From: Bacteroidaceae bacterium
GTDB lineage: Bacteria; Bacteroidota; Bacteroidia; Bacteroidales; Bacteroidaceae
DNA length: 64,000 nucleotides
Direction: 5' to 3'
NCBI GenBank assembly: GCA_045634085.1
Contig: JAZQZM010000015.1
Location: 235 to 64,234, forward strand
Made by a program: the position numbers and the translations under genes. Below are positions 36,823 to 64,000 of this stretch, piece by piece. The number at the start of each line of letters is the position of its first letter. Within the stretch, counting starts at the first letter, position 1. A model generated the notes under the pieces. That model saw only the letters and a program-made list of their open reading frames with translations. It did no database searches and had not been told where the DNA came from.

Positions 36823-37293
36823 ATGAAAAAGCGCATTGTTTTCCTTTTGTTGCTTGCTGTTGCTGCTGGGATTGCCGCGGCTTCCGTTCCCGACAAAAAG
36901 ATTGTTGTCAGGAGCCGGCAAGGTTCTGCAGAGTATGCTGTTGCCGATATCATGAGCCTTAAATTCGGTAACGGCGATGTCTATATGAACATGAACGACG
37001 GTTCTGTCGTGAACTGGGCTGCTGGCGGTATAGATATGATGTCGTTCCTCTATTATGAGCCCTCTCCCGAGACCGGTATCGGGGAGAACTGCGTCCAGTC
37101 TTTTTCTATTTTGGGCGGTTCCATTGTCATAACAAGCAGTGCTCCGGTAAAGGTCACATTGACTACCATAGACGGACGTTCCCTGTTTGCCGGTTATTGT
37201 AACGGTGAACTGCGCCTGCCTGTGCAGGAGTATCCCGCAGGTGTGTATCTCTTGAGTATAAACGGAGCAATCCATAAGATAATGAACCGATGA
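36823..37293 (+). CDS. Small secreted protein with a T9SS type-A C-terminal sorting domain
   Basis: It has a signal peptide (MKKRIVFLLLLAVAAGIAAAS) and a C-terminal pattern VKVTLTTIDGRSLFAG...PAGVYLLSINGAIHKI typical of Por/T9SS CTDs. Confidence 0.65.
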   Translation: MKKRIVFLLLLAVAAGIAAASVPDKKIVVRSRQGSAEYAVADIMSLKFGNGDVYMNMNDGSVVNWAAGGIDMMSFLYYEPSPETGIGENCVQSFSILGGSIVITSSAPVKVTLTTIDGRSLFAGYCNGELRLPVQEYPAGVYLLSINGAIHKIMNR

Positions 37294-40181
37294 AAAGGTG
37301 CTTTTTTGTAATAATATCCCTTTTGTCGGCAATAGTGGCGCGCGCCGACAAGGATGTCAAGTTCTACATGAACAACGGTGAAGTGAAATGTGTGGCAATG
37401 GAACGTGTCGACAGCATCGCTTTTGATGAGAAGGCCGATGTCATGAGAGTCACTCTTTTTGACAACTGTAGTGCCGAAGTGCAGTTCTCAGCAGTTGACA
37501 GCATTGGTTATGGCGAACTTCCCTCGGCGGTGACAGTAACATATCTTGGCGGCCGTGCAATTGTAGAAAATCCTTTTGCGTTTGACAGCGTGGCAGTGAA
37601 TGTCGATGGCGCCAAGGTTACCGTGACCTCGCAGACCTCAAAGGAGGTTGACTATAAGCTTGAGGGTACAAGTGACAACGGATGTTTCAAGATTTATGGT
37701 TCGCGCAAATATAACCTGTATCTCGATGGTGTTTCCCTTGTCAACGCTGGCGGTGCTGCCATCAACAGCCAGTGCAAGAAGAGGGCAAGGGTGTTTGTCA
37801 ACAAAGGTACCGTGAATACGTTGACCGATGCTGCCAAGTACACAACCGTTAGCGGCGAGGATGAGAAGGGTACAATCTTCAGCGAGGGGCAGTTGATTTT
37901 TGATGGCGACGGCAGATTGGTTGTCAACGGTCTTTACAAGCATGCTATCTGTAGTGATGACTATGTGGAGTTCCGTGGTGCTCTCCTTGAGGTTGCCAAG
38001 GCTGCGGGCGATGCCGTTCATGCCAACGATTCTGTTTTAGTGAAAGGTGGAACACTTCTTCTCAATTCACAGGGTGACGGCATTGATTGTGACGGCATTG
38101 TGAGAATGCTTGGCGGGGATGTGACAGTGATGGCGTCGGGTGATGATGTGAAAGGCGTCAAGGCTGCCGGCGATATACAGCTTGGCGGTGCTGACATCAG
38201 GATAACCATGCCGGGCGATGCATCAAAGGGTATAAAGAACAACGGTATGCTCTCCATTTTGGGTGGAGATATCAATATCGTTATGACCGGCAACAGCATT
38301 GTGACCGGCGTCTCTCCGTCATATGCAACCTGTATAAAGAGTGATTCTTCCGTCAACATTACAGGTGGCACTGTCACATTGACTGCAAGCGGCATTGCCG
38401 GACGTGGCATTTCGGCCGATGTGGATGTGAATATCCTTGACGGAACAACCACCATCGTATGCAGCGGCAATAGCGAGACCTATGACCCTACATATGACGA
38501 GATTCTTGGCGGTGATGAAGAGGAGGAACACAAAAGCTATGTGGTTTATGTGAGTGTACCCACGTCAACGGCAAGTAACCGTCCCGGTGGCAGTTCGTCG
38601 AATGTGTGGAAGAATGTCTATCTCTATGACAGCAGCAACACTCTTGTCGCAGCGCTCACAGATAAGGTGGTCATCAACAATACCACTTTCTACCGTTACG
38701 ATTTCGGCACTGAACAAACGGGTACATACTATTTCAAGAGTGACAATTATACAAGCGGCAGAACGACATACACAATACGGAGTTCGTCGTTTACAGGTCT
38801 TGCCGCAGATACCTATTACCAGATATCGTCAAGCTACAGTACATCAGGTTCTACACGCACCTATTCCATAACCGACGTGACCGGAAGTTTTGCCGGCGGT
38901 TCATCGGCTTCTTCAACCGAGGATTCATACGCAGCAGCGGGAATAAAGTGTGACAGGGACTTTACCCTGTCGGGCGGTACCCACACTATTACCATGAGTG
39001 GCAGTGAGTCAAAGGGTATAAAGGTAGAGGGTGCGGCTCTCATTGATGGCGGTGATCTTACAATAAATACCTCGGGGACTGCAAAGGTAGTGGCCTATGA
39101 TCCCTCATACTGCACAGCAATAAAGTGTGACGGTGCCTTGACTATTAACGGCGGCAATATCAATATAACGGCTACAGGTCAGGGTGGCATGGGAATCTCG
39201 GCTGACGGTGTGCTCACGATGAATGGCGGCAATGTTGATGTTACGCTTTCGGGTGCGGGCTCATCATATACTGCAACCACAGGAACCGACTATTATTCCA
39301 CAAAGTGCCTCAAGGGTGATGTAGCGGTGAATCTGTTGGGAGGAACTCTAAACTGTCTTGCAAAAGGCAATGGCAGCAAGGCAATCGTGGCATCGGGGGT
39401 GCTGACGATAGGTGCAGAGGGTGCCGATAACAGTCTGCTCAACATCAGTGCCGTGACACAGGGATCATCACTCGGCTCAACATCGGGCGGCGGCATGGAT
39501 AGTGGTTTCAACGCCGCGCCCAAGGCCATAAAAGGTGCTGCCAATGTATATGTGAATAGCGGTACGATATATGTTGAGACTAAGAATGACGGTGGCGAGG
39601 GACTAGAGAGCAAGGCGACCCTCACAATCAATGGCGGCATTATTGAGTGCAGCACCTACGATGACGGCATAAATGCCAAGACAGCCTTGATAATCAATGG
39701 CGGTTGCATATATAGTCACGCTACAAACAACGATGGAATCGACTCCAACGGTACGATAACCGTGAACGGCGGTATTGCACTCAGTTCGGGTTCTTCGGCG
39801 CCCGAGGAGGGATTCGATTGCGACCAGAACCAGTTTGTAATAAACGGTGGTATAATGGTGGGTACCGGCGGTGCTACAAGTAACCCCACATCGGCATCGC
39901 AGCCATACTCTTCGGTAACATCCGTATCAGTGACATCTGGCAAGTACATTTCGGTGAAAGACAGTTCGGGAACCGTGCTATTCTCATACAAGTGCCCCAA
40001 TACTGTGAACGGCGCCACGGTGCTGCTCTCTTCGCCAGAGTTCACGAAGACGTCTCATACATTGATGTACGGAGTCACATCCGTTGCCGGTGCTACAGAG
40101 GAACTTTTCGGTGGAGTCTACAGCGTAGGTGGAACTCTTACCGGTGGCTCGTCAAAGAGTTTTACTCCTGCTACGAAATAA
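37290..40181 (+). CDS. Large exported beta-helix protein containing two Cthe_2159-like (DUF4353, carbohydrate-binding) modules separated by a Ser/Thr/Tyr-rich insert
   Basis: It has a signal peptide (MKRCFFVIISLLSAIVARA). Both halves contain repeated GG-x-I/L turns with DGIDCDG, DDGINAK, NDGIDSNGTITVNGG and GFDCD blocks. Its start overlaps the upstream stop as ATGA. Confidence 0.6.
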   Translation: MKRCFFVIISLLSAIVARADKDVKFYMNNGEVKCVAMERVDSIAFDEKADVMRVTLFDNCSAEVQFSAVDSIGYGELPSAVTVTYLGGRAIVENPFAFDSVAVNVDGAKVTVTSQTSKEVDYKLEGTSDNGCFKIYGSRKYNLYLDGVSLVNAGGAAINSQCKKRARVFVNKGTVNTLTDAAKYTTVSGEDEKGTIFSEGQLIFDGDGRLVVNGLYKHAICSDDYVEFRGALLEVAKAAGDAVHANDSVLVKGGTLLLNSQGDGIDCDGIVRMLGGDVTVMASGDDVKGVKAAGDIQLGGADIRITMPGDASKGIKNNGMLSILGGDINIVMTGNSIVTGVSPSYATCIKSDSSVNITGGTVTLTASGIAGRGISADVDVNILDGTTTIVCSGNSETYDPTYDEILGGDEEEEHKSYVVYVSVPTSTASNRPGGSSSNVWKNVYLYDSSNTLVAALTDKVVINNTTFYRYDFGTEQTGTYYFKSDNYTSGRTTYTIRSSSFTGLAADTYYQISSSYSTSGSTRTYSITDVTGSFAGGSSASSTEDSYAAAGIKCDRDFTLSGGTHTITMSGSESKGIKVEGAALIDGGDLTINTSGTAKVVAYDPSYCTAIKCDGALTINGGNINITATGQGGMGISADGVLTMNGGNVDVTLSGAGSSYTATTGTDYYSTKCLKGDVAVNLLGGTLNCLAKGNGSKAIVASGVLTIGAEGADNSLLNISAVTQGSSLGSTSGGGMDSGFNAAPKAIKGAANVYVNSGTIYVETKNDGGEGLESKATLTINGGIIECSTYDDGINAKTALIINGGCIYSHATNNDGIDSNGTITVNGGIALSSGSSAPEEGFDCDQNQFVINGGIMVGTGGATSNPTSASQPYSSVTSVSVTSGKYISVKDSSGTVLFSYKCPNTVNGATVLLSSPEFTKTSHTLMYGVTSVAGATEELFGGVYSVGGTLTGGSSKSFTPATK

Positions 40182-49778: not shown

Positions 49779-50876
49779 TTATCGGCGTGTACGGCGTACC
49801 GAAACTTTTGCCGAACCACCGGTAGCCTTGGGCTCGCTTTGTTTCTTCTGTTTTGTCTCTTTCTTTGCCTGGGTCTGTTTCTCCTTGTTAGTGCGGCGTG
49901 TTGTCTTTTTTGCCTTCTTGCCGGGGTTCTCAGCTGCTGCAATAGAGTCGTTTGCCGCTTCAATGGCTGCGTTTATTGAATCCTGACGAATCTCTGCCAC
50001 AGTCTTGGTATTCCACAGGTTGGTGCGGAAGTCGGTAAGTTGCTGCTCAATCTTCTGCTGCTCCTTCTTAACAGATACAGAGTCCTTGCAGTATTGTGAT
50101 ATGGCAAGATTTCTCAGGTTCACGGTCTTGTATATCTCGCCTTCATATGCACCCTTTGTGAAGTAGTCATCGAGTGACATTGACGCAGCGTTGTTGAGAC
50201 TGCTTGCCATAACGCTTTGCTGTGCGAGCATGGGGGCTATCTCGTCGTAATTGACCCAGAACATAGGGTATTTTGTCGCTTCGTATGCAAACTCGTCACT
50301 GCGGTGCAGTACGGGACATATGGCTGTGACGCGTGTACCGTATGTACCGGTCTTGCTGTCGTAGTAATGGCTCTCCTTGACATAGTAGCTCAGGACCTCG
50401 GCACTCGGTATGTCACTCTTGCCCACAGTTATGGCTCCGTCTTTCTCCTCGTAGTAGATGCGGTAGTCCTCAAGCAGGTTCTTGGGGGATATTATGCTCT
50501 CCTCGGTGAATGACTCGTAACCGTCAAGATTATAAGTGTAGGCTGTAATCTTGCCGCTTATGATGTTGTTGAAGAGGAATGTGAAGAGGTTCATGCTGTT
50601 ACCGGTCTGCTCCACAGGGTAGTAGAGTGATGCGTTCTTCTCCTGCTGGAGGTCAAGAATACGGTATACATCACGTTTCCATTCAACCTCTTGGGGAACA
50701 ACCATACCAGGGTACTGGCTCTTTGCCCTCTGGGTAAGCGTGCTGTTTGTTGTATTACCCTTCGCTTTGCTCTCTTTCTTTGCATTGTCCTTCTGACGTG
50801 CCGGCGGCTGTGCGTCGGCTGCATGCACGGCAAGCAGGAGTGATGCAATGACTAATAGTCGGCTTATGTATTGCAT
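49779..50876 (-). CDS. gldN: T9SS periplasmic ring protein GldN/PorN, with a Lys/Arg-rich C-terminal tail
   Basis: It has a signal peptide and the WKRDVYRILDL...LYYP block typical of GldN. It sits last in the gldKLMN order. Confidence 0.85.
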   Translation of the reverse strand: MQYISRLLVIASLLLAVHAADAQPPARQKDNAKKESKAKGNTTNSTLTQRAKSQYPGMVVPQEVEWKRDVYRILDLQQEKNASLYYPVEQTGNSMNLFTFLFNNIISGKITAYTYNLDGYESFTEESIISPKNLLEDYRIYYEEKDGAITVGKSDIPSAEVLSYYVKESHYYDSKTGTYGTRVTAICPVLHRSDEFAYEATKYPMFWVNYDEIAPMLAQQSVMASSLNNAASMSLDDYFTKGAYEGEIYKTVNLRNLAISQYCKDSVSVKKEQQKIEQQLTDFRTNLWNTKTVAEIRQDSINAAIEAANDSIAAAENPGKKAKKTTRRTNKEKQTQAKKETKQKKQSEPKATGGSAKVSVRRTRR

Positions 50877-50897
50877 AATCGTATTGTTTGTTCGTTC

Positions 50898-52475
50898 TTA
50901 TTGTATGATTACTTCAAGTGATGTCGGCAGCAGACGTTCTACGCCATCGGGGCCAACAGCCTTCACGTGTGATATGTAGAAACGCTTGCCACGGCTCAGG
51001 TCGCGCATCATCTCCTTCTGGCGTGAAGAGAAGTTTGTGCCGTCCGAAACCATAGGTTTTGCATTGCCCATATTGTCGTAGAATACTGTCTCGAACGAGA
51101 GCACCTTGAACCCAATGTTCAGCAATCCGTCGTCGATGGCAGCCACTATTCCGTTCGAACTCATAAGAGCCTGCTTGCTGAGTCCCTTGCCACCGCGGTA
51201 GCGTTGTGTGTTGCCATCCTTGTCCTTGTATTCGATGAAAGGTGTGGGGTCGGGTAACTGGCGCACACGGAATGTGTATTCACCCATACTCTGGTTCTTG
51301 CCGGCTTCATTAAGTGCCGTTACACCAATGAGAATCTCCTCACCGACCTTTGTCGGTACTACGGTGTATCCTCCCTTACCGTCACTTTTTATGCTTCCGC
51401 TACCTTTTGATATGTTGGCCGAAATCTTGTTGGCGGGCACGCCCGGAACAGAGATGCTGACAGGGTTGGAGTAGCCTGCATAAAGCACGTTCATCATAGA
51501 GGCGCTTACTGTCGCTGTCGGGTCTACAACTGTGTAGTTCTGCTTGAAGTCATAGCGTGACTGTGAACCGGAGCCGTCGTTGACGAGCATGTAGCCGTTG
51601 AGGGTGTAGTCACCGGTCTTGTTGCACTGTATGCTGTACTCGCCATTCTCCGATTCAAGCATTTTGTCGCCGATGTATATCTGCGGGCGCTGTGTCGAGT
51701 CTACTGCGGCAAGGATAATCTGTGCCGAGAAGTTACCACCTCGGACGATATTCTTTGACGTAGGAATCACAAGAGCCTGAATCTGGTTCACGCGTACGTC
51801 ACCCAGGTCGATGTTCTTTGATAGTGTATGCAGAATCTCACCCTCGATGTAGCGTACATCGTTCTGTATCTTAGTAAGCAATGTAATGGCAGCAATGGCC
51901 GGCATGCTTTCAAAATGGTACTCCTGCCAGTTCTTGTGCAGAGCCTGGTCCCTTTGCGGTACATCTGTGCTCAGAGTCTTCTCTATAATTTCTTTTTGTC
52001 CGGGATTGTCAACCATCGAGAGTATCTTTTCGCGGTACTCCGATATGGTATTGTACAACTTCTCACCCTCGCCTGTACCGGGAGCAAGCATCACGTATGT
52101 TGCAGCCTCAAGGTCCTCGCGGTTTACCAGGTTCCTGTAGTCGCCGTCAGCACCGTCGGCTTTCTTTGCTATGCGGTCTTTCAGTTCGTCGGCATACTCA
52201 TAGATGGATGCTGTAATCTTCTTTACTTCCATTGCACGTTCGTACCACTCACGCACCTTTTCGGGGTTCTGCTCATAGTACAGTTCGAACGCGCTGTATA
52301 GCATGTTGTTCTGTTTTACCGTATTCTCGGTACTCTCTGAAAGGCTCTCGTCAACAAGCGTGAAACCGTTGAGTACGTCCGAAGATACGTTCAAGGCAAG
52401 CATCGCCATCAGAAGAACATACATGAGGTTAATCATCTTCTGACGTGGTGAGACTTTCTGTTTCTTGATTTTCAT
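50898..52475 (-). CDS. gldM: T9SS motor/stator-associated protein GldM/PorM
   Basis: It has the N-terminal PRQKMINLMYVLLMAMLALNVS TM block diagnostic of GldM. It is 525 aa. Confidence 0.9.
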   Translation of the reverse strand: MKIKKQKVSPRQKMINLMYVLLMAMLALNVSSDVLNGFTLVDESLSESTENTVKQNNMLYSAFELYYEQNPEKVREWYERAMEVKKITASIYEYADELKDRIAKKADGADGDYRNLVNREDLEAATYVMLAPGTGEGEKLYNTISEYREKILSMVDNPGQKEIIEKTLSTDVPQRDQALHKNWQEYHFESMPAIAAITLLTKIQNDVRYIEGEILHTLSKNIDLGDVRVNQIQALVIPTSKNIVRGGNFSAQIILAAVDSTQRPQIYIGDKMLESENGEYSIQCNKTGDYTLNGYMLVNDGSGSQSRYDFKQNYTVVDPTATVSASMMNVLYAGYSNPVSISVPGVPANKISANISKGSGSIKSDGKGGYTVVPTKVGEEILIGVTALNEAGKNQSMGEYTFRVRQLPDPTPFIEYKDKDGNTQRYRGGKGLSKQALMSSNGIVAAIDDGLLNIGFKVLSFETVFYDNMGNAKPMVSDGTNFSSRQKEMMRDLSRGKRFYISHVKAVGPDGVERLLPTSLEVIIQ

Positions 52476-52487
52476 CGCCTTTCTGTA

Positions 52488-53273
52488 TTAGATCTGTTGA
52501 CGGTTCGTGTTTGTTGTCATGGCCTCAATCATGCGGGTGTAGAGACTGTTCAGTTCCTCTACCTGCTGAGCCATCTTCTGTGTCTGCTCGTTTATCTGGT
52601 CAAGTGAGTTGAGCTGTCCGCTTGCATTGCGCAGCTGAATCTCGTATATTGCGTTCACGCCAGTGAGGTTGCGTCTCAGGGTCTCCATCTCCTCAAGATT
52701 CTCACCAAGCGCCTCGGTCTGTTTCGAAATCTGTGCAATAGCCTCGTTCAGTGTGCGTACCTGCTCAATGTATTCTTCGGTAACCTTGTCCATGTTGCTT
52801 ACATTCTCAGCATTTGCAACCGGGAACTGCTGTGGAACTGTACCCTCAAATGCAGGCTGTACAACAGTGGTGCCTGTCTGTACAGGAGCCACGTTCACGT
52901 TCTCGCCACAGTCGGCAGTCTGGCTGCCTGCTACTGCGCCGCCGGCAACAATAGGACCGTTGATGATTATTGGCTGTCCACCGGCAGTCTGTGCGTATGC
53001 TCCCGTTACGTTATTTGCCTCACTCTCTTCCTCAGCAACTTCGTAAGGACGTTCAAATGCCGAGAAGAAGAACACTAGTACCTCGGTACCCATACCCACA
53101 AAAAGCATGAGGTTGGCTCCTGCCAAGTGGGTTAGTTTGAATAGTGTACCAAGAATCACAATGGCCGCACCCCAACTGTATGCATAGTTCAGAATGGTCT
53201 TGCCACGCGGAGTGTCCATAAAATCCTGTATCTTGCTGATAATGCCTTTAGACTTTTTCATATGCTGTTTCAT
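52488..53273 (-). CDS. gldL: T9SS motor protein GldL/PorL
   Basis: It has two N-terminal TM helices (YSWGAAIVILGTLFKLTHL, GMGTEVLVFFFSAFE) and a cytoplasmic coiled tail. Confidence 0.88.
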   Translation of the reverse strand: MKQHMKKSKGIISKIQDFMDTPRGKTILNYAYSWGAAIVILGTLFKLTHLAGANLMLFVGMGTEVLVFFFSAFERPYEVAEEESEANNVTGAYAQTAGGQPIIINGPIVAGGAVAGSQTADCGENVNVAPVQTGTTVVQPAFEGTVPQQFPVANAENVSNMDKVTEEYIEQVRTLNEAIAQISKQTEALGENLEEMETLRRNLTGVNAIYEIQLRNASGQLNSLDQINEQTQKMAQQVEELNSLYTRMIEAMTTNTNRQQI

Positions 53274-53299
53274 TCTTTATTGTCCTTTGTTTGGTTCGG

Positions 53300-54733
53300 T
53301 TATCTCTTGCGGTCGGTTCCTGCATAGCTGCGTACACAGCGGAAACCAATGTATGAACGTGACTCGTTCTGGTACTCCGAAGTTCTTGTAGCGCCCTGGA
53401 TGAACTTGACGGGGTCCTTCCATGAACCTCCACGAACGGTCTTCTTCTTCATATAATAGGGGTCCTCTTTTGCTGCGCGGTAACGTAGGTCGGGATTGAT
53501 GTCACTCATCTGCAGCACGCCGGCGTCAGTGTATACTGTCGATGTCCACTCGGCAACGTTGCCGGCCATGTCGTAGAGACCGTTTGAGTTTGCCGAGAAT
53601 ATTCCGCAACGCGATGTTATGAGGCTACCGTCCTTGGTGTAATTGCCTTCTCCCGGCTTGTAGTTAGCGTAGTAGCATCCCTGGTCACTCTTGGTGTCCT
53701 CCTGTTCCCATGGGAAACGGTTACCCTCCTTGCCGCGTGCAGCGTACTCCCACTCGACTTCCGATGGCAGACGGTAACGCTGTATCCATTTGGCCTGTGC
53801 TCCCATGCCCTTGAGCAGATACTCAGTACGCCATGCGCAGAAAGCATTGGCCTGCTCCCAGCTTACGCCCACAACAGGGTAGTTGTCATAGTTGGGGTGG
53901 CTGAAGTAGAGCTGTAGGTATGTCTCGTTATTCGCATTGGGGAAATCATTTACCCAGCATGTAGTGTCGGGGTAGATGTTCACGATATAAGTGTTGAGGA
54001 AATCGTAAGGACTTGAGAGTGCGCGGTTGATAGTCTCTCTTACAATGTTGCCCTCGTCATCAATATATGCTGTGTCCTTTGAGATTGTGATGACCTCGTC
54101 ATAGTTTACAGGAATGTCGGTATTGCGGTTGCGTTCCTCCGGTTTCAGACGGTTCTTGCGCAATGCAGCCTGAGTGTGGTCATAGATTTCGTAGCGGTAG
54201 TTCATCTGCGCCGCGTCAAGCATTTTTTCGCCTGTAATGGGGTTGACGATGTATACACTCTCAATAGCACGCTGCTCATCCTCTGAAGGCTTTTTCCAGG
54301 GGATGGGCTTCTTCCAGTTGAGGTATGGAGTGATGGGCTCGCCATACTCGTCTTCGGTTATCTTGAATGTCTCGTCGCCGCCATATGCAGGGTCGGCGAG
54401 GCGTTCGCGGATAATGGAGTCGCGTACCCAGAATACAAATTGACGGTACTTGGCATTGGAAACCTCGGTCTCGTCCATCCAGAATGCATCTACCGAGATG
54501 TCCTTTGCAGGAGCACCGGTGCCCCAAAGCGAGTCACTCTTCTCGTCGCCCACCTTTATTGAGCCTCTTGGGATGAATACCATTCCGTAAGGATTAGGTT
54601 CGTTCACGGCAGTACCGCTTATTCCGGTAACTTCGCCGCCTTGCGAACTGCTCATTCCTGTGCGCGGGCTCAGACATGATGCCGCGGCGAATGAGAGAAG
54701 AACCATTGAGAAAAAGACTATTTTCTTCATCAT
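53300..54733 (-). CDS. gldK: T9SS lipoprotein GldK/PorK (FGE-sulfatase/SUMF1 fold)
   Basis: It has a lipoprotein signal (SFAAASC), MVFIPRGS, WMDETEVSN and RGGSWKD...IGFRCV blocks. Confidence 0.9.
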   Translation of the reverse strand: MMKKIVFFSMVLLSFAAASCLSPRTGMSSSQGGEVTGISGTAVNEPNPYGMVFIPRGSIKVGDEKSDSLWGTGAPAKDISVDAFWMDETEVSNAKYRQFVFWVRDSIIRERLADPAYGGDETFKITEDEYGEPITPYLNWKKPIPWKKPSEDEQRAIESVYIVNPITGEKMLDAAQMNYRYEIYDHTQAALRKNRLKPEERNRNTDIPVNYDEVITISKDTAYIDDEGNIVRETINRALSSPYDFLNTYIVNIYPDTTCWVNDFPNANNETYLQLYFSHPNYDNYPVVGVSWEQANAFCAWRTEYLLKGMGAQAKWIQRYRLPSEVEWEYAARGKEGNRFPWEQEDTKSDQGCYYANYKPGEGNYTKDGSLITSRCGIFSANSNGLYDMAGNVAEWTSTVYTDAGVLQMSDINPDLRYRAAKEDPYYMKKKTVRGGSWKDPVKFIQGATRTSEYQNESRSYIGFRCVRSYAGTDRKR

Positions 54734-55671
54734 TGCAATATTCTTATACTGTTATGTTTATTCTTTTCTTTCTTGAAAATGTCAAGGTTAATCTGGTATC
54801 CCAGAAAAATGTCGTGGCTGCCGTTGGCTGCTCCGATGCCCGATGTGAACAGTTCGTATCCGTAGCTTGCCGTTATGTTCATCATCTCCATGCCCACAAA
54901 GAAGGTTACAGATACGTCCGGACTGTATGTGAGGCCGCCAAAGAATTGCTTGTTGTCATAGTCATATGTTCCTCGGGCCGTTATGTCGGCACGCCACGAT
55001 ACAAAATCAGTCATCACCTGCAATGAGGGCTGTACTGATATTAACGTATTTTTTATCGGTATATTGCCTCCGGCAGTGAAATTAAAGTATTGTGATATCT
55101 CAACCTCGTTCTTTTCGCCCAGAAGTATGGTGGGCGCATTAAGGTGGAGACCCGATACTCCTGCGTAGAAATATTTGTGCTGGTAGAGTATTCCTGCGCC
55201 GAAATCGAACGAGTTGCCGTTGGCATTGCCACTGGGGAACGCCGGGTCGTTGCTGTCGCCTCCGAACTCTATGCCCTTGCTGTCGAATGCACTGTTGAGT
55301 ATGCCTATCTGCGCTCCTGCCGCCAGTCTGCCGCCGAACAACTTGAAACCGTAGGCATAGTTGAGGTAGATGTGCTGGTTGGTGAACATACCTATGTCGT
55401 CGTTCAATGCGCCAAGTCCAAGGTTGTGGTCGCCGCGCACAAATGGTATTGGCGCGTCAATGTTCAGGAGCATGCTCTTTGGGTTGTTCTCAAACCCCGA
55501 TAGCTGGTTGCTGTAGGCGGCGTATGCAAACATCTTCTGTTCGGCACCAGCACCTGCCGGGTTGTAGAAGTTGAGCATCTTCCAGTAGTGTGTGAAGTGC
55601 ACGTCATATTGCGCGCGTACGGTTGTGAACGCGCCGATGGTCATCGTGAGTATGAACAGCCACTTCTTCAT
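54730..55671 (-). CDS. porP: T9SS outer-membrane protein, PorP/SprF family
   Basis: After the signal peptide it has the QYDVHFTHYW..LNFYNPAGAG block. It is a beta-barrel and lies directly upstream of gldK. Confidence 0.85.
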   Translation of the reverse strand: MKKWLFILTMTIGAFTTVRAQYDVHFTHYWKMLNFYNPAGAGAEQKMFAYAAYSNQLSGFENNPKSMLLNIDAPIPFVRGDHNLGLGALNDDIGMFTNQHIYLNYAYGFKLFGGRLAAGAQIGILNSAFDSKGIEFGGDSNDPAFPSGNANGNSFDFGAGILYQHKYFYAGVSGLHLNAPTILLGEKNEVEISQYFNFTAGGNIPIKNTLISVQPSLQVMTDFVSWRADITARGTYDYDNKQFFGGLTYSPDVSVTFFVGMEMMNITASYGYELFTSGIGAANGSHDIFLGYQINLDIFKKEKNKHNSIRILQ

Positions 55672-60101: not shown

Positions 60102-61304
60102 TTACAAGTTGTCTACTACGTTTACCAGGTATCTTACACCCCCGACAATGTTCTGTATGTTGGGGAAGAACACCTTGCGTGCCATGTCAATGATTGCAGG
60201 GCGGTATTTCTCAGTGTTCTTCGAGTTGAAACCTATGGCAAAAACTGTGCGTATGAGTCGCAGGGCATCCATCATGGAGCCGAACTTCTGAATCATCTCC
60301 GGGTCTTCTGTCCTGAAATACTTTTTTATGAAGCACTCTTTGAGAAGTGCGACCGTAGCATTGTCCATGCCGGCAATGCCCATTATCATCTCATCGGTTC
60401 TCATTCCGTTGAGGATTACAGCGATTGAAATAAGGTCATAGATAGGATGGCCTACGCCCATCTGCTCCATGTCGATCCAGAGCATCTCGCCGTCCTGTAT
60501 CATCAGGTTCTTCGGGTGGGCGTCGCAGTGTACGAGCCTGTCACCTTCGGGCAGTGCGTCAAGAATCTGCTTCAAGCACTCTCCCTCCTCCTCGGTAAAG
60601 TATATTGATGCGTTTTTGACCTGATTACGGTAGTTTTCTTTGGCGCTGGTGAATATCGGGTTATCGGTGCGGATAGAGTGGAGCAAGTTGAGCTGTCCGA
60701 TATATTTCTCGGTGAGTTCCTCCATGCGCTCCGGTTCGTTCTGCATGGTCTCGCCCAAAGTGAGGCTTTTGATGGTTTCATATACGACACCGCGTCGGCC
60801 CTCGCCGCAATCGACAATGTCGAATGATATGGCTGTAGGGATGCCCAGAAGGAATGCCTCCTTGGCCTTTGCGAGTTCCTTGTCAAGACCCTCGTATGTC
60901 TCGGGGTTGTAGTTGACCTTGACAATCTCATCTTCGCTTACTCTGTATACGGCACCGTTGCCGCCAAGGCCGATTCTTTCGCACTTGTCCAGGTCGATCT
61001 TACGCAATGCCTTTGTGATATTAATGATTCTTGAGAATCCGGTCATCTCAAAGACACTGTATACTGATGCCGGTACATTCTCTATCCTGAAATTCTTTTC
61101 ACTCTTCGCAATCTTGAGTATTGTGCGAAGGCCGCTTGATGCAATATATTGAAGCTCTGTCGCGTCAAGAACCATACTGCTATGCTGGTTGTTCTTGCAT
61201 ATTTCTATGATTTCGGCCTCGAACCTGATGGAATTTTCGGTATCAAGTCTTCCTGATAATGTTACATAAAGGCAATCATTGTCCAATCTGTAATTATAGT
61301 CCAT
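60102..61304 (-). CDS. Fusion protein: N-terminal STAS (anti-sigma-factor antagonist) domain plus an APH/choline-kinase-fold phosphotransferase
   Basis: The STAS part is LYVTLSGRLD...VLDATELQYIASSGLRTIL. The kinase part has GGNGAVYRV, IVKV (Lys), the catalytic LVHCDAHPKNLM and the metal-binding WIDMEQ. Confidence 0.75.
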   Translation of the reverse strand: MDYNYRLDNDCLYVTLSGRLDTENSIRFEAEIIEICKNNQHSSMVLDATELQYIASSGLRTILKIAKSEKNFRIENVPASVYSVFEMTGFSRIINITKALRKIDLDKCERIGLGGNGAVYRVSEDEIVKVNYNPETYEGLDKELAKAKEAFLLGIPTAISFDIVDCGEGRRGVVYETIKSLTLGETMQNEPERMEELTEKYIGQLNLLHSIRTDNPIFTSAKENYRNQVKNASIYFTEEEGECLKQILDALPEGDRLVHCDAHPKNLMIQDGEMLWIDMEQMGVGHPIYDLISIAVILNGMRTDEMIMGIAGMDNATVALLKECFIKKYFRTEDPEMIQKFGSMMDALRLIRTVFAIGFNSKNTEKYRPAIIDMARKVFFPNIQNIVGGVRYLVNVVDNL

Positions 61305-61599
61305 AATATTTCTTAATTGTTAATTGATAAAATCGTTGAACCTGTTTTTGGTGAAGTCATATTGGCGAGAAATCCTGTGCTGCAGATGTACTGCGGCCGC
61401 TGCAGATATCGCAGCCAACCAGCCTTGGCACTCTTCTATAATCTTGAAAACCACGATGCAAAGTTAATGAAATGCGCAAATACTTCAAAGTACATGGTTG
61501 TAAATATTTAACCAACAGGTTGTTTGTCAATGTGGATGAAGTCTGTTCCGGATAAATAATATAACAAAGACAAGTATCGTGATATGTGTCTTTTATGCA

Positions 61600-62129
61600 G
61601 GTAAGCTCCAATAGCCTATGGGAATCTTTAGGAAGGCAAATTGTAGATTGTAATGGGGCTTGTGACCCTTGTCAAGCCCCCCAAGAACGAGATTGTCACC
61701 ATACCCAATTCACACGTTATCTCCTCGCTGACCACCAATTACAGTTCATCGACGCAGGAGTATGGACTTATTATACACACCGATGTCACTTTCGGTTACG
61801 AAGTCCCCTGGGAACAGGTACACCAGCTTATGATACAGGCTGCTCTTGCAACACAGCATATCGAGTCCGATCCTGCTCCTTTTGTGTTGCAGACAAAACT
61901 GGACGATTGGTACGTTGTATACCAGATAAATGCCTACACCCGCCAGCCCGAGAAAATGGCAACCATCTACTCCGATCTTCACCAGCATATCCAGGACCTC
62001 TTCAACGAGGCCGGCATTGAGATAATGTCACCCCATTTCATGGTGTACGTCAGGCCGAGAGGGTATTCATGCCCGATGAGTATCTGCAGCCAAAAGAGAA
62101 GAACGAAGGCAAGAAGTGAGAGCAGATAG
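61600..62129 (+). pseudogene. Truncated, frameshifted remnant of an MscS-family mechanosensitive channel gene (C-terminal beta/alpha-beta domains only)
   Basis: KNEIVTIPNSHVISSLTTNYS and downstream cytoplasmic-domain sequence are present. No TM region lies upstream. The upstream piece (GRQIVDCNG) is in another frame. A plausible native C-terminus (FMPDEYLQPKEKNEGKK*) is in a different frame from about 62045. Confidence 0.6.
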
Positions 62130-62135
62130 CAGTAT

Positions 62136-62173
62136 AGAAGTAAGCGTTACAGGATTCTGTAACGCTTACTTCT
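62136..62173. terminator. Bidirectional terminator hairpin
   Basis: It is a 17-bp perfect stem AGAAGTAAGCGTTACAG / CTGTAACGCTTACTTCT with a 4-nt loop. Confidence 0.75.
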
Positions 62174-62186
62174 AATGTTAATTATG

Positions 62187-62642
62187 CTACTCTTCGTATA
62201 TATGAACATATCTATTTTCATCTAGAATGAATTTCTGCTCAAAAGGATAGATATATTTATTTTCTGGTATTTGGGGTGGTGTAATTTTTATCTTATCTAC
62301 TTCTACAACGGAGTATGCTTCTACGGTATTATTATTTATAAAAAGGATTGTAGTTAACGAATCAAACATCGTCTTTTTGTCACATATGCTTCTTAATCTA
62401 TCCGACATCTTCAAGTTGACAAAATCTTCTCTTTCTGTATTAAAATATGGATAAACCAAAAATATACTGTCATACTTTTCTTTGCAATAATCAACAAAGG
62501 TGAATGGCTTGCCAATTGCTTGCTTTTCAAGTTGAAGTTCTAGTTTTGGCTCGGTTGGATTGCAACCTATAAATAATAGCATGCCGATAGTGAATGTGAC
62601 TAAGCTATTCAAGAATTTTAAGCCTTCCATTGTTCGCTGCAT
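62187..62642 (-). CDS. Small lipoprotein, paralog B of a tandem pair (immunity-like)
   Basis: It has a lipobox (LLFIGC|N). Roughly half of its residues, judged by eye, match the upstream paralog (LELQLEKQ..KPFTF.DYCKE.YDSIFLVYPYFN...ILFIN...). Confidence 0.6.
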   Translation of the reverse strand: MQRTMEGLKFLNSLVTFTIGMLLFIGCNPTEPKLELQLEKQAIGKPFTFVDYCKEKYDSIFLVYPYFNTEREDFVNLKMSDRLRSICDKKTMFDSLTTILFINNNTVEAYSVVEVDKIKITPPQIPENKYIYPFEQKFILDENRYVHIYEE

Positions 62643-62696
62643 TTATTACATGTTTTAACAGTTCGTTTTCATCCCAGCCATTGATAATGGCAAATA

Positions 62697-63179
62697 TTAC
62701 TCATTGTGAATATGAATATTTCTTTCCTTGTCCATTATAAACTTCTGGTCGATTGGGAAGATATAATGTTTTTCAACTTCTCTTGCATTAAAGCCTGCAT
62801 TAGCAGTTGCTATAATTGAATAAGCCTTAACAATGCCTCTGTTTATAAAAAGTATAGTAGAGTATGAATCGGATAGAGCGTTTGATTCACAAATATCTTT
62901 TAGCCTGCAAGACATCCTGATATTTTTAAAATCCTTTTTTTCTATATTGAAATATGGATAAACCAAGAATATACTGTCATATCTTTCTTTGCAATAGTCT
63001 GCAAATGTAAATGGTTTATCAAATACTTGCTTTTCAAGTTGAAGCTCAAGTCTCTGCTCTTGAGGTGGAATTATTCCAAATGTGTTCAAAATATTTATAA
63101 TCTTGTTGCAACTTGTAAACAGGAAGGCGGCGATGAGAATGAGAAAGAGTCTCTTAAAATTCAATTTGTAATGTTCCAT
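62697..63179 (-). CDS. Small lipoprotein, paralog A of a tandem pair (immunity-like)
   Basis: It has a lipobox (AFLFTSC|N). The start at 63179 (or 63191) overlaps the 3' end of the upstream gene. Confidence 0.6.
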   Translation of the reverse strand: MEHYKLNFKRLFLILIAAFLFTSCNKIINILNTFGIIPPQEQRLELQLEKQVFDKPFTFADYCKERYDSIFLVYPYFNIEKKDFKNIRMSCRLKDICESNALSDSYSTILFINRGIVKAYSIIATANAGFNAREVEKHYIFPIDQKFIMDKERNIHIHNE

Positions 63180-63684
63180 TGTTAGCGGCATTTATTACTT
63201 TGTTTAAAAGTTCTACTTCATTCCAACCATTTATTATAGCTTGGTTGCCTAAATGGTATCCTACTGCATTATTATGTAGGTCCATTGCTTTTGCTCTATT
63301 ATTTGGTATATCTTCGTGTGTGTCACCAAACTCTTTTGCGAGTGGTGAGTTATAACCCGCAGAAACTTGGTTTAGTGCACACCAATAACAATGACGGATT
63401 GCGTCTCCATATCCATCTTCTGTGCCATCAAAATGCATCGTTGCTTTGAATGCTTTTTCTCTATTTTTTTTTATCTCTATGGCTAAAAATGGGTGCTTAA
63501 AAGATAATGTTTTTTCTTTTTCGGTTAGCTGGTTGTAGACCTTCTTGTAATCTTTGTACTTGTCACTGATGGGGTCATAACCATCTTCTTGCGGTGGGAA
63601 GTTTCCTTCATTCCAATTATCATACGCTCTTGCTCTCTCAAAAATGTTTGGTATTCTCTGGCCGTTGTTAACAAAGTTACTCAT
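63154..63684 (-). CDS. Small cytoplasmic-type protein with a DUF6973-like conserved block (putative toxin/effector)
   Basis: This 176-aa protein has no signal peptide. It carries the block GDAIRHCYWCALN...FGDTHED...AMDLHNNAVGYHLG. Confidence 0.55.
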   Translation of the reverse strand: MSNFVNNGQRIPNIFERARAYDNWNEGNFPPQEDGYDPISDKYKDYKKVYNQLTEKEKTLSFKHPFLAIEIKKNREKAFKATMHFDGTEDGYGDAIRHCYWCALNQVSAGYNSPLAKEFGDTHEDIPNNRAKAMDLHNNAVGYHLGNQAIINGWNEVELLNKVINAANNGTLQIEF

Positions 63685-63710
63685 AATTATTACACTTTAA
63701 AATTACAATG

Positions 63711-63718
63711 CAAAATTA
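63711..63718 (-). promoter_or_regulatory. -7 promoter box on the minus strand (TAATTTTG)
   Basis: The reverse complement of CAAAATTA lies 27 nt upstream of the ATG at 63684. Confidence 0.45.
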
Positions 63719-63865
63719 CCGTATAACCTTTTCTGCAAGGTTGCTGAATTGCCACTTTTAAGCAAATATACAAAACGTGCATGCCGTTGTCAATACTTTG
63801 CCGCAGGAAATGCGTTTTATTTTGTTTACTTTAACAAACAAGACAAGAGGTTGACTAAAAAGGTT

Positions 63866-63968
63866 CTTTTGTTGTTGTGCTCGCCCTCAAAATGCTCATT
63901 TACGCTTAGTAAACTTCGCTTTTTCGGGCCTAAAAATAACTCTTTTTATTCAACCTCATAACAACAAG
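63866..63968. repeat. Hairpin element copy 3
   Basis: The stem GCCCTCAAAATGC (63883-63895) pairs imperfectly with GCTTTTTCGGGC (63918-63929). The apex is TCA-TTTAC-GCTTA-GTAAA-CTTC (63896-63917). The outer arms are TTGTTGTTG / CAACAACAA. Confidence 0.55.
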
Positions 63969-64000
63969 TGGATAACCCAAAAGAAAATGGGTTATCCACT

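Follow-up and report, generated by a model that had tools for sequence, protein, structure and literature searches.

A putative interbacterial DUF6973 (Min-Wnt/BteO) toxin-immunity cassette beside a probable orphan immunity gene in a Bacteroidaceae contig

The stretch of DNA analyzed here (the window) comprises 64,000 nt of contig JAZQZM010000015.1 from a Bacteroidaceae bacterium (GCA_045634085.1) and carries, near its right-hand end, an islet of three co-oriented minus-strand genes, encoding a small putative toxin of the DUF6973 family followed by two paralogous lipoproteins, referred to as lipoprotein 1 and lipoprotein 2 (Table 1). A first-pass annotation, made from the sequence alone, had described three co-oriented genes, an AT-rich composition, a TAnnTTTG promoter box and an overlap of about 26-38 nt between the first two genes, and all of this was borne out. 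The G+C content of the islet (62185-63798) was 33.4% compared to 48.3% for the whole window, and stretches of the same length elsewhere in the window did not fall below 40.9%. Both overlap values were recovered depending on the choice of start codon, as the toxin gene and the lipoprotein 1 gene overlap by 38 nt with the first ATG (63191) and by 26 nt with the second (63179). Besides the promoter box already described, a second TAnnTTTG box was identified, and both fall within a leader of ~110 nt that is conserved in the alignment with two loci from other genomes, L001 and L002; according to the blastn boundary, similarity to other genomes starts at ~63798. The toxin and lipoprotein 1 are made from one operon with overlapping reading frames.

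Table 1. Features of the islet and of the neighboring genes in the window.
Feature	Position	Strand	Description	Basis
5' leader/promoter of cassette A	63685-63798	-	Two Bacteroidota-type TAnnTTTG boxes, TAATTTTG (63711-63718) and TATATTTG (63763-63770)	L001/L002 alignment
Toxin gene	63154-63684	-	176 aa, putative toxin of the DUF6973/Min-Wnt/BteO family; no signal peptide or transmembrane segment	
N-terminal module	63595-63684	-	~aa 1-30, MSNFVNNGQRIPNIFERARAYDNWNEGNF; candidate delivery/loading tag	Local HMM search
DUF6973 (Min-Wnt) domain	63178-63510	-	aa 59-169	Pfam envelope
Lipoprotein 1 gene	62697-63191	-	164 aa from the first ATG, putative cognate immunity; lipobox LFTSC, Cys28 at 63108-63110	
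Second DUF6973 gene remnant	62605-62691	-	Last 28 codons and stop, AIINGWDENELLKHVINAANNGRLKILE	
Lipoprotein 2 gene	62187-62642	-	151 aa, putative orphan immunity; lipobox LFIGC; alternative start 62630	
Hairpin	62135-62174	.	18-bp stem; separates the islet from the MscS fragment, which is convergent	Terminator-like scan
MscS C-terminal fragment	61653-62129	+	MS_channel_3rd and end of the beta-domain	Pfam
Right-flank hairpin	63967-64000		13-bp stem; one copy in the window	
PorP/SprF	54730-55671	-		
GldK-like	53300-54733	-	FGE-sulfatase-domain protein	
GldL	52488-53273	-		
GldM	50898-52475	-		
GldN	49779-50876	-		

The first-pass annotation had described the 176-aa protein as a DUF6973 protein without a signal peptide and with a block of motifs rich in His, Glu and Cys, and had kept in view that it might belong to a housekeeping family. 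The profile search instead placed it in a toxin family: Pfam DUF6973 (PF22322) was matched with 66.4 bits (E = 2.4e-18; cutoff 27 bits), residues 59-169 aligning to positions 2-122 of the 124 positions of the model. The N-terminus has no hydrophobic stretch, the motifs DAIRHCYWCALN, GDTHED and MDLHNNAVGYHLG are present, and the C-terminal tail reads AIINGWNEVELLNKVINAANNGTLQIEF. The signature residues D94, R97, H98, H123, E124, K132, D135, H137, N138, N139 and G142 are invariant columns of a family alignment (A1) and of a cross-phylum alignment (A4), and 302 homologs were found in the sequence database. An AlphaFold2 (AF2) model of the toxin was all-alpha, with a predicted local distance difference test score (pLDDT) of 80 overall and above 90 over the conserved core, and its top structural matches in a viral library were DUF6973 proteins. 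Foldseek of this model against the Protein Data Bank (PDB) gave nothing significant (best E = 0.42); three weak matches to serum amyloid A3 (SAA; E 2-3) fit the SAA-Wnt clade and are no evidence alone, and phmmer with the single toxin sequence against the PDB returned only noise (e.g. nitrile hydratase), BteO being reached with profiles alone. Readings of the His/Glu/Asp motifs as PLA2-like, HNH-like, zincin-like or Zn-PLC-like were rejected because the motifs do not fit, the model is all-alpha and Foldseek gave them no support, and Bte3 (Nat Commun 2026) was dropped as a relative, being beta-rich and unrelated. The term DUF6973 was not found in the searchable literature.

Both lipoproteins start with a basic N-region that leads into a hydrophobic core and a lipobox with Cys; the two lipoboxes had been read correctly from the sequence, and the Cys was invariant in 20 aligned lipoprotein homologs. 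Lipoprotein 1 belongs to a family of 343 homologs without a Pfam domain, mostly called at 160 aa, and judging from these it likely starts at the second ATG, which gives 160 aa. Searches against Pfam and NCBIfam returned nothing beyond a sub-threshold YfbU match, which we judged to be chance, and a lipoprotein profile (A3) found no matches among the PDB sequences. Relatives of the lipoproteins at the loci L036, L045 and L061 share a WDxLYIxxPY motif.

The islet consists of two cassettes that meet at a sharp junction (62692/62691): cassette A comprises the promoter leader, the toxin and lipoprotein 1, and cassette B a toxin stump and lipoprotein 2. The spacer between the lipoprotein genes holds, in frame, AIINGWDENELLKHVINAANNGRLKILE and a stop codon, copying the toxin's C-terminal tail; this stump was recovered independently by tblastn (E = 1.3e-6) and begins exactly at the junction. 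Segment A (63798->62692) was 95% identical to L001, up to the limit of that contig, and 86% identical to L002, where the match stops at 62692, while segment B (62691->62185) was 84%, 82% and 79% identical at the nucleotide level to L026, L007 and L028, respectively, each match starting exactly at 62691. In these three loci segment B covers the terminal 86 nt of a DUF6973 gene that is intact there, together with the lipoprotein gene belonging to it. The toxins encoded there are ~52% identical to the toxin of the window and end in NNGRLKILE/K, and lipoprotein 2 shares 80-82% amino acid identity with the lipoproteins that follow the intact toxins of this tail type in L026 and L007. In L002, type-A and type-B cassettes are both intact and stand in tandem, which is the probable ancestral state. 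By these comparisons lipoprotein 2 is identified as the putative orphan immunity gene of a deleted toxin allele of the L026/L007/L028 type, and from the segment matches and the junction we read the window as holding a presumably active pair, toxin A and lipoprotein 1, plus an orphan. No recombinase or mobile-element gene was seen here.

The two lipoprotein genes had earlier been explained by tandem duplication. Their paralogy stands (47% identity at the protein and 63% at the DNA level), but a simple duplication in situ does not, as unit 2 comes from a different cassette. A plain local duplication that diverged in place, with a second toxin never involved, would account for two co-linear units that have long identical runs in common. 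However, the repeated DNA unit (63240->62698 versus 62691->62188, 63% identity) begins inside the toxin gene, and the first 28 codons of its second copy encode, in frame, the tail of a DUF6973 protein, this copy being closer to the cassettes of other genomes (79-84%) than to unit 1; moreover, all external matches share one starting base and L002 retains both cassettes. Such an origin is hardly credible to us. The arrangement rather resembles the orphan tip-immunity modules of contact-dependent inhibition (CDI) and Rhs systems and the acquired interbacterial defense (AID) systems of gut Bacteroidales, where immunity genes likewise occur without a functional toxin and with a 3' toxin fragment ahead of them, where the breakpoint lies in conserved toxin sequence, and where related loci carry orphan arrays. 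It differs from these in that the window has a single orphan beside an active pair and in that the toxin is a small standalone protein and not the tip of a filament or Rhs cage.

The same organization recurs throughout the family. A profile search with DUF6973 retrieved 2743 cluster representatives of 130-1737 aa, in which the domain is mostly C-terminal, and the long forms are DUF6443/RHS-repeat proteins of 1106-1737 aa (including the one at L052) with DUF6973 as the C-terminal tip, which answers in the affirmative the question raised in the first-pass annotation of whether the domain ends polymorphic toxins. In five Acidobacteriota loci a DUF6973 gene of ~140 aa follows genes for TssB-TssC-Hcp-TssE of a T6SS (type VI secretion system), and four of them have a DUF6973-lipoprotein pair placed between TssE and TssF, the fifth contig (L075) ending too early to show it. 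At L045 and L036 (Prevotellaceae, Alloprevotella), DUF6973 forms with N-terminal extensions are encoded within ~3.5 kb of Peptidase_C39 ATP-binding cassette (ABC) exporters, with an HlyD-family protein also near the gene in L036; we take these extensions, most clearly that of L045, to be possible double-glycine leaders. Firmicutes forms carry Sec signals and Chitinophagales forms lipoprotein signals.

The pairing of homologs with small exported proteins, which had been proposed as a check, was likewise found. In essentially all Bacteroidaceae loci whose sequence extends downstream, a lipoprotein homolog overlaps the 3' end of the toxin gene by ~28 nt, and most of the distant loci examined in other phyla have a small lipoprotein or, in Firmicutes, a transmembrane (TM)-anchored protein downstream; the partners in distant clades belong to different sequence families. 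This pattern matches the rule published for toxins of the Lipocone superfamily, whose immunity proteins are TM proteins or lipoproteins (PMC12419801), and thus supports an immunity role. Many Bacteroidaceae loci furthermore contain divergent pairs in tandem, lipoprotein genes that are intact beside a toxin stump or a frameshifted toxin, or arrays of lone lipoprotein genes. The family hence shows what characterizes polymorphic toxins in the sense of Zhang et al. (2012), i.e. a variable C-terminal tip on different delivery modules, a downstream immunity gene and orphans nearby. Overall, the first-pass reading of the islet as a toxin with cognate immunity plus an orphan is supported by family membership, synteny, the stump and the comparison with the donor allele.

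One member of the family has been characterized. The narrow family profile matched PDB entry 9uu0_A, BteO fused to maltose-binding protein (MBP), with E = 0.0064 and the cross-phylum profile A4 with E = 3.5e-10, and the aligned BteO fragment in turn scored 53.1 bits against Pfam DUF6973, which passes the threshold. BteO is a GA3 T6SS effector of Bacteroides fragilis GS074 with BtiO as its immunity protein (He et al., PNAS 2025, PMC12541434; PDB 9UU0). Its action is T6SS-dependent and it is toxic in the periplasm only, where it causes elongation, blebbing and lysis and is neutralized by BtiO; its binding partners are OmpA proteins, contacted at their C-terminal domains (OmpA-C), mutants at R143, H144, H167, E168, D187 or D191 lose both toxicity and binding, and an altered muropeptide composition was reported (PMC12541434). 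Using an offset of 296 within the MBP fusion, R143/H144, H167/E168 and D191 map to R97/H98, H123/E124 and D135 of the window toxin and are the RH, HE and D of the three DUF6973 motifs, while D187 aligns to A131 and is not conserved. The two systems are therefore alike in a homologous toxin domain with five of the six essential BteO residues kept, and also in a Bacteroidaceae host, a toxin without a signal peptide and an exported immunity protein encoded directly downstream. In contrast, BteO has an N-terminal TM helix, whereas residues 1-58 of the window toxin contain no hydrophobic segment and include a soluble module of ~30 aa; BteO comes from a T6SS locus, where its gene occupies variable region 1, whereas the parts of the window scanned showed housekeeping, type IX secretion system (T9SS) and other genes and no T6SS gene; and BtiO is a Sec-signal mimic of OmpA-C, whereas the partners in the window are lipoproteins without detectable similarity to BtiO. 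BteO also reads DLLNN where the family has DLHNN, and given the missing His it may be an atypical member.

DUF6973 had been regarded as a domain without assigned activity, which no longer holds, as the family includes BteO and corresponds to Min-Wnt, a predicted phosphoesterase family. Ten of ten diverse sequences from the Min-Wnt authors' own set (Min-Wnt.tsv) passed the DUF6973 threshold with 41-80 bits, which at the level of sequence identifies DUF6973 as Min-Wnt, a family within the Lipocone superfamily. Burroughs, Nicastro & Aravind (eLife 2025, PMC12419801) describe Min-Wnt domains as homologs of the Wnt core from prokaryotes whose His/Glu/Asp pocket is intact and which serve as polymorphic-toxin tips paired with TM or lipoprotein immunity proteins and are predicted computationally to cleave phosphate-linked lipid head groups, e.g. 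of lipid II, like the related TelC; within the superfamily, TelC and PTDSS1/2 are proven enzymes. In the window family, H98, (H123)E124, D135, H137/N138/N139 and G142 were invariant in two alignments (A1 and A4), and with helix positions taken from the AF2 model the toxin carries the active-site pattern of Lipocone proteins, consisting of the H2 His, the Glu at the end of H3, the H4 Asp, a downstream polar residue and the Gly capping H4. Lipocone proteins have a core of 4-5 helices arranged as a cone, which the all-alpha model of the toxin may share. Besides the 2025 work in eLife, an earlier Min-Wnt study by Burroughs and Aravind reportedly appeared in 2020, and YfiM is said, in the title of a preprint, to be a lipid-linked oligosaccharide pyrophosphatase. 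Profile A4 also gave a weak match to human Wnt-5a in the PDB (9z67_A residues 100-194, E ~0.01), running through FVDARE and the Wnt hallmark MNLHNNEAGR; it mirrors the Wnt link made by the Min-Wnt authors and faintly and independently recalls the origin of Wnt from bacterial toxins that has been proposed.

Min-Wnt systems as published resemble the window family in the two-gene toxin-immunity layout, in tandem immunity arrays and in associations with Rhs and T6SS, but the Bacteroidota entries listed in the accessible text are fusions of a lipobox and a Cystatin-like domain, with Imm-Jellyroll or Imm-BamE as partner, and a signal-less form with the N-terminal module described below was not found in that part of the description (PMC12419801). 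TelC-TipC of Streptococcus intermedius, an LXG-type lipid II phosphatase of the type VII secretion system (T7SS) with a membrane-anchored protein for immunity, is likewise a Lipocone system; TelC is active only outside the cytoplasm and TipC is extracytoplasmic (PMC12419801). The pair offers the template for an enzymatic hypothesis. TelC differs in belonging to the prok-TelC family and in being delivered by T7SS in Gram-positive hosts, and neither a direct sequence match nor a Foldseek match of the window toxin to TelC was found. No paper mentioning BteO and Lipocone together was found in the searchable literature.

Taken together, we consider the islet, with a probability of roughly 0.8, to be an interbacterial toxin-immunity cassette of the Min-Wnt/DUF6973 family, of which BteO is also a member. 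The toxin would be delivered to the periplasm of a neighboring cell and there disturb cell-envelope homeostasis through a groove formed by R97/H98, H123/E124 and D135, together with H137/N138/N139. Lipoprotein 1, in the periplasm of the producer, would block this groove and thereby protect against toxin from sister cells, and lipoprotein 2 would be kept as orphan immunity against neighbors making allele B. A periplasmic target, which the first-pass annotation had suggested from the lipoprotein nature of the partners, is supported by the homology to BteO with its strictly periplasmic toxicity and by a sister toxin that carries the same N-terminal module ahead of DUF5675, a domain reported to be similar to C82 L,D-transpeptidases.

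Several points weigh against this picture. Toxicity and immunity of the proteins in the window are assigned by comparison with relatives, and enzymatic activity is predicted; neither glycosidase nor amidase activity was seen in the one member studied at the bench, whose mechanism was judged to be non-enzymatic (PMC12541434). In Pfam and the PDB the lipoproteins showed no detectable similarity to BtiO, to OmpA-C or to BamE, and the AF2 model of lipoprotein 1 was unusable (pLDDT 45). Neither 9UU0 nor TelC was among the 50 PDB matches listed by Foldseek for the toxin model, and the N-terminal fold of BteO is divergent according to a study of Hcp loading (PMC13035841). Finally, no T6SS, PAAR or Rhs genes were detected near the cassette in a Pfam scan of ~37-61 kb of the window, nor, with T6SS queries of the Acidobacteriota type, in 45 Bacteroidaceae loci within flanks of up to 10 kb, where the recurrent neighbors were housekeeping genes.

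As to the chemical step, we tentatively favor, at slightly under even odds and by analogy with the proven enzymes of the superfamily, hydrolysis of the phosphate-linked head group of a lipid carrier such as lipid II or another undecaprenyl-pyrophosphate-linked precursor. The competing view takes BteO at face value: the groove would clamp the peptidoglycan-binding C-domain of OmpA and uncouple the outer membrane from the wall without any catalysis, and the lipoprotein immunity would act as a decoy for the groove. It draws on pull-down, co-immunoprecipitation and microscale thermophoresis data for binding of BteO to OmpA-C domains, on the suppression of BteO by OmpA overexpression, on a triple ompA mutant that phenocopies the toxin and on the negative glycosidase and amidase assays (PMC12541434), and the residues through which BteO binds are those conserved in the window toxin. 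Yet these residues do not vary in seven or more phyla, from Firmicutes to Acidobacteriota, including Firmicutes with Sec-secreted forms and TM-anchored partners, and they match the ancestral H/E/D active site of Lipocone proteins, among which TelC and PTDSS1/2 are proven enzymes (PMC12419801); secreted forms also exist in bacteria that have no outer membrane. Moreover, the immunity partners of different clades are unrelated families and not all OmpA mimics, BteO without the His of DLHNN may be atypical, and the BteO paper makes no mention of Wnt, lipid II or undecaprenyl and did not assay such substrates while reporting altered muropeptides (PMC12541434). For these reasons head-group cleavage is favored over pure OmpA-C binding, which we hold to be possible but would not bet on, even though such experiments as exist speak for binding. 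Far more remote is an intracellular role of the toxin as an anti-phage or abortive-infection effector, with the lipoproteins as an antitoxin-like brake or unrelated neighbors. Min-Wnt proteins without secretion signals or extracellular fusions are indeed predicted to act inside the cell against viruses (PMC12419801), and a signal peptide is missing from the window toxin. However, the sensor domains of those systems are all absent, a cytoplasmic toxin would be out of reach of an exported lipoprotein, the loci show the hallmarks of polymorphic toxins (tandem divergent pairs, stumps with intact immunity genes, orphan arrays), and the N-terminal module is shared with a toxin of cell-wall type that has a Sec-exported partner. 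We consider such a role very improbable.

The proposed route of delivery builds on the N-terminal module of the toxin. Its AF2 model is of low confidence (pLDDT 45-63), with a beta-pair at residues 4-5 and 9-10. The same ~30 N-terminal residues open a second toxin family in 13 of the 45 Bacteroidaceae loci, where they are followed by Pfam DUF5675 (70 bits); these proteins are ~200 aa long, contain the motif GIAIHxGxxxxDTxGCLLPG with faint similarity to Tlde1_dom, and are followed by a 210-aa Sec-signal protein without a Pfam domain. A preprint describes DUF5675 as structurally similar to C82 (L,D-transpeptidase) peptidases. Such pairs lie at L002 (18255-19503) and also at L012, L015, L020, L035, L040 and L041. 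A search of the loci with a hidden Markov model (HMM) of the module found only DUF6973 or DUF5675 as the C-terminal domain, and a large profile search with the module retrieved only fragments of 30-78 aa and no new type of C-terminal domain. Within a locus the modules of the two toxin families are identical at 19-25 of 25 positions, as compared to 2-14 of 25 between loci (ungapped count), and the module thus follows the genome and not the toxin domain. This is reminiscent of the N-terminal loading region that is common to unrelated GA3 effectors and enters lineage-specific Hcp2-Hcp3 rings (PMC13035841), in that a module stands on unrelated toxin domains and co-varies with the host lineage; the likeness is an analogy with no demonstrated homology, and the GA3 loading region spans 70-80 aa (Bte1/Bfe1/LysM fold) as opposed to ~30 aa here. 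By this analogy the module is most likely a loading tag for a secretion machine, and Hcp-cargo loading of a Bacteroidales T6SS is the delivery route we favor, with even chances.

Alternatively, the toxin would not be T6SS cargo but a diffusible, bacteriocin-like protein that leaves the cell through an exporter recognizing the module, in outer-membrane vesicles or by lysis. The lack of detected T6SS genes beside any of the 45 Bacteroidaceae cassettes, which sit at housekeeping sites such as MetK-hypothetical-cobalamin adenosyltransferase, would suit this, as would the occurrence of the domain near bacteriocin exporters of the peptidase-containing ABC transporter (PCAT) type in Prevotellaceae and Alloprevotella, its Sec-secreted forms in Firmicutes and the fact that Bacteroides make diffusible protein toxins (PMC12541434). 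On the other hand, a Sec signal, a double-glycine leader and a T9SS C-terminal domain are all missing from the toxin, a periplasmic target means that the outer membrane of the target has to be crossed, and a module that tracks the genome on unrelated toxins behaves like an Hcp-loading region (PMC13035841); small DUF6973 proteins of Acidobacteriota, which lack the Bacteroidaceae module, sit inside T6SS clusters, and BteO is T6SS-dependent. We regard a diffusible route as unlikely, though well worth keeping in mind. The scan for neighbors is bounded by the end of the window, 316 nt upstream of the start codon of the toxin gene, and a tblastn search of the loci and the window with Acidobacteriota T6SS queries, which would miss a divergent Bacteroidales T6SS, gave Acidobacteriota matches only.

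The flanks of the islet largely agree with the earlier description. The decayed MscS gene and the terminator on the left were found as a C-terminal MscS fragment and a hairpin that is likely the terminator of the operon. The fragment is preceded by ~350 nt of 36-41% G+C (61304-62129 region) without the N-terminal part of the channel, and it may have been truncated when the cassette came to lie at this site. On the right, the hairpin exists but is single-copy within the window, so that it does not qualify as a repeat. A complete T9SS core operon (49779-55671, minus strand) lies ~6.5 kb from the islet; since the toxin has no Sec signal and no T9SS C-terminal domain, we see no link between the two. 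Elsewhere in the window, 60102-61304 (minus strand) encodes a 400-aa protein in which an N-terminal STAS (anti-sigma-factor antagonist) domain is fused to a phosphotransferase domain of the APH/TIGR02172 type, an unusual architecture for an anti-sigma antagonist, and 37290-40181 (plus strand) encodes a 963-aa protein with a signal peptide and three Cthe_2159 carbohydrate-binding/beta-helix-like repeats that is unrelated to the islet.

Some further observations were made at the loci compared. At L048 (10769-11005) a DUF6973 gene has an internal deletion that fuses the N-terminal module to the last third of the domain, and at L042 (89-550) a DUF6973 gene lacks the RH helix; an intact lipoprotein gene follows in both cases. 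In one 788-aa protein (P0205) DUF6973 stands near the N-terminus (127-235), with LRR_5 repeats of the BspA type and a Listeria-Bacteroides repeat behind it, the reverse of its usual placement. Two other lipoprotein families, both without a Pfam domain, recur interspersed among the toxin and immunity genes of the arrays, one of ~263 aa (L014 11220-12011, L015 5765-6556, L016 9097-9888) and one of ~305-311 aa with an internal duplication (L002 13224-14141, L015 2668-3603, L018 1905-2837, all on the minus strand); these could be immunity proteins for other toxins. In 17 loci the insertion site is the same, after MetK, a 215-aa hypothetical protein and a PduO-type cobalamin adenosyltransferase (including L001, 6910-9402 then 10001). 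The cassette of the window lies at another site, similarity to L001 and L002 starting only at ~63798.

In summary, the islet adds a further cassette to a family that has been catalogued computationally as Min-Wnt and studied once experimentally as BteO. In the searchable literature we found neither the equation of DUF6973, Min-Wnt and BteO with the conflict of mechanisms that results from it, nor the N-terminal module shared with DUF5675 toxins, nor this lipoprotein family as a partner. The link between the three names exposes a predicted enzymatic and a published non-enzymatic mechanism that both rest on the same five residues, and the putative orphan immunity gene is a textbook case, with a base-exact breakpoint and a donor allele that is still intact in other genomes. 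The N-terminal module is a candidate handle for finding effectors that are encoded away from secretion loci. More speculatively, the 'non-enzymatic' OmpA interface of BteO could be the ancestral catalytic site, all DUF6973 proteins could be periplasmic phosphoesterases and the shared, genome-specific tag could mark their delivery route, a combination that we hold to be conceivable rather than probable. If true, OmpA binding would be a secondary or targeting step in a family that cuts lipid II or undecaprenyl-pyrophosphate carriers, and the short tag on the DUF6973 and DUF5675 toxins of uncultured gut Bacteroidaceae would represent a route for effectors encoded far from secretion loci.

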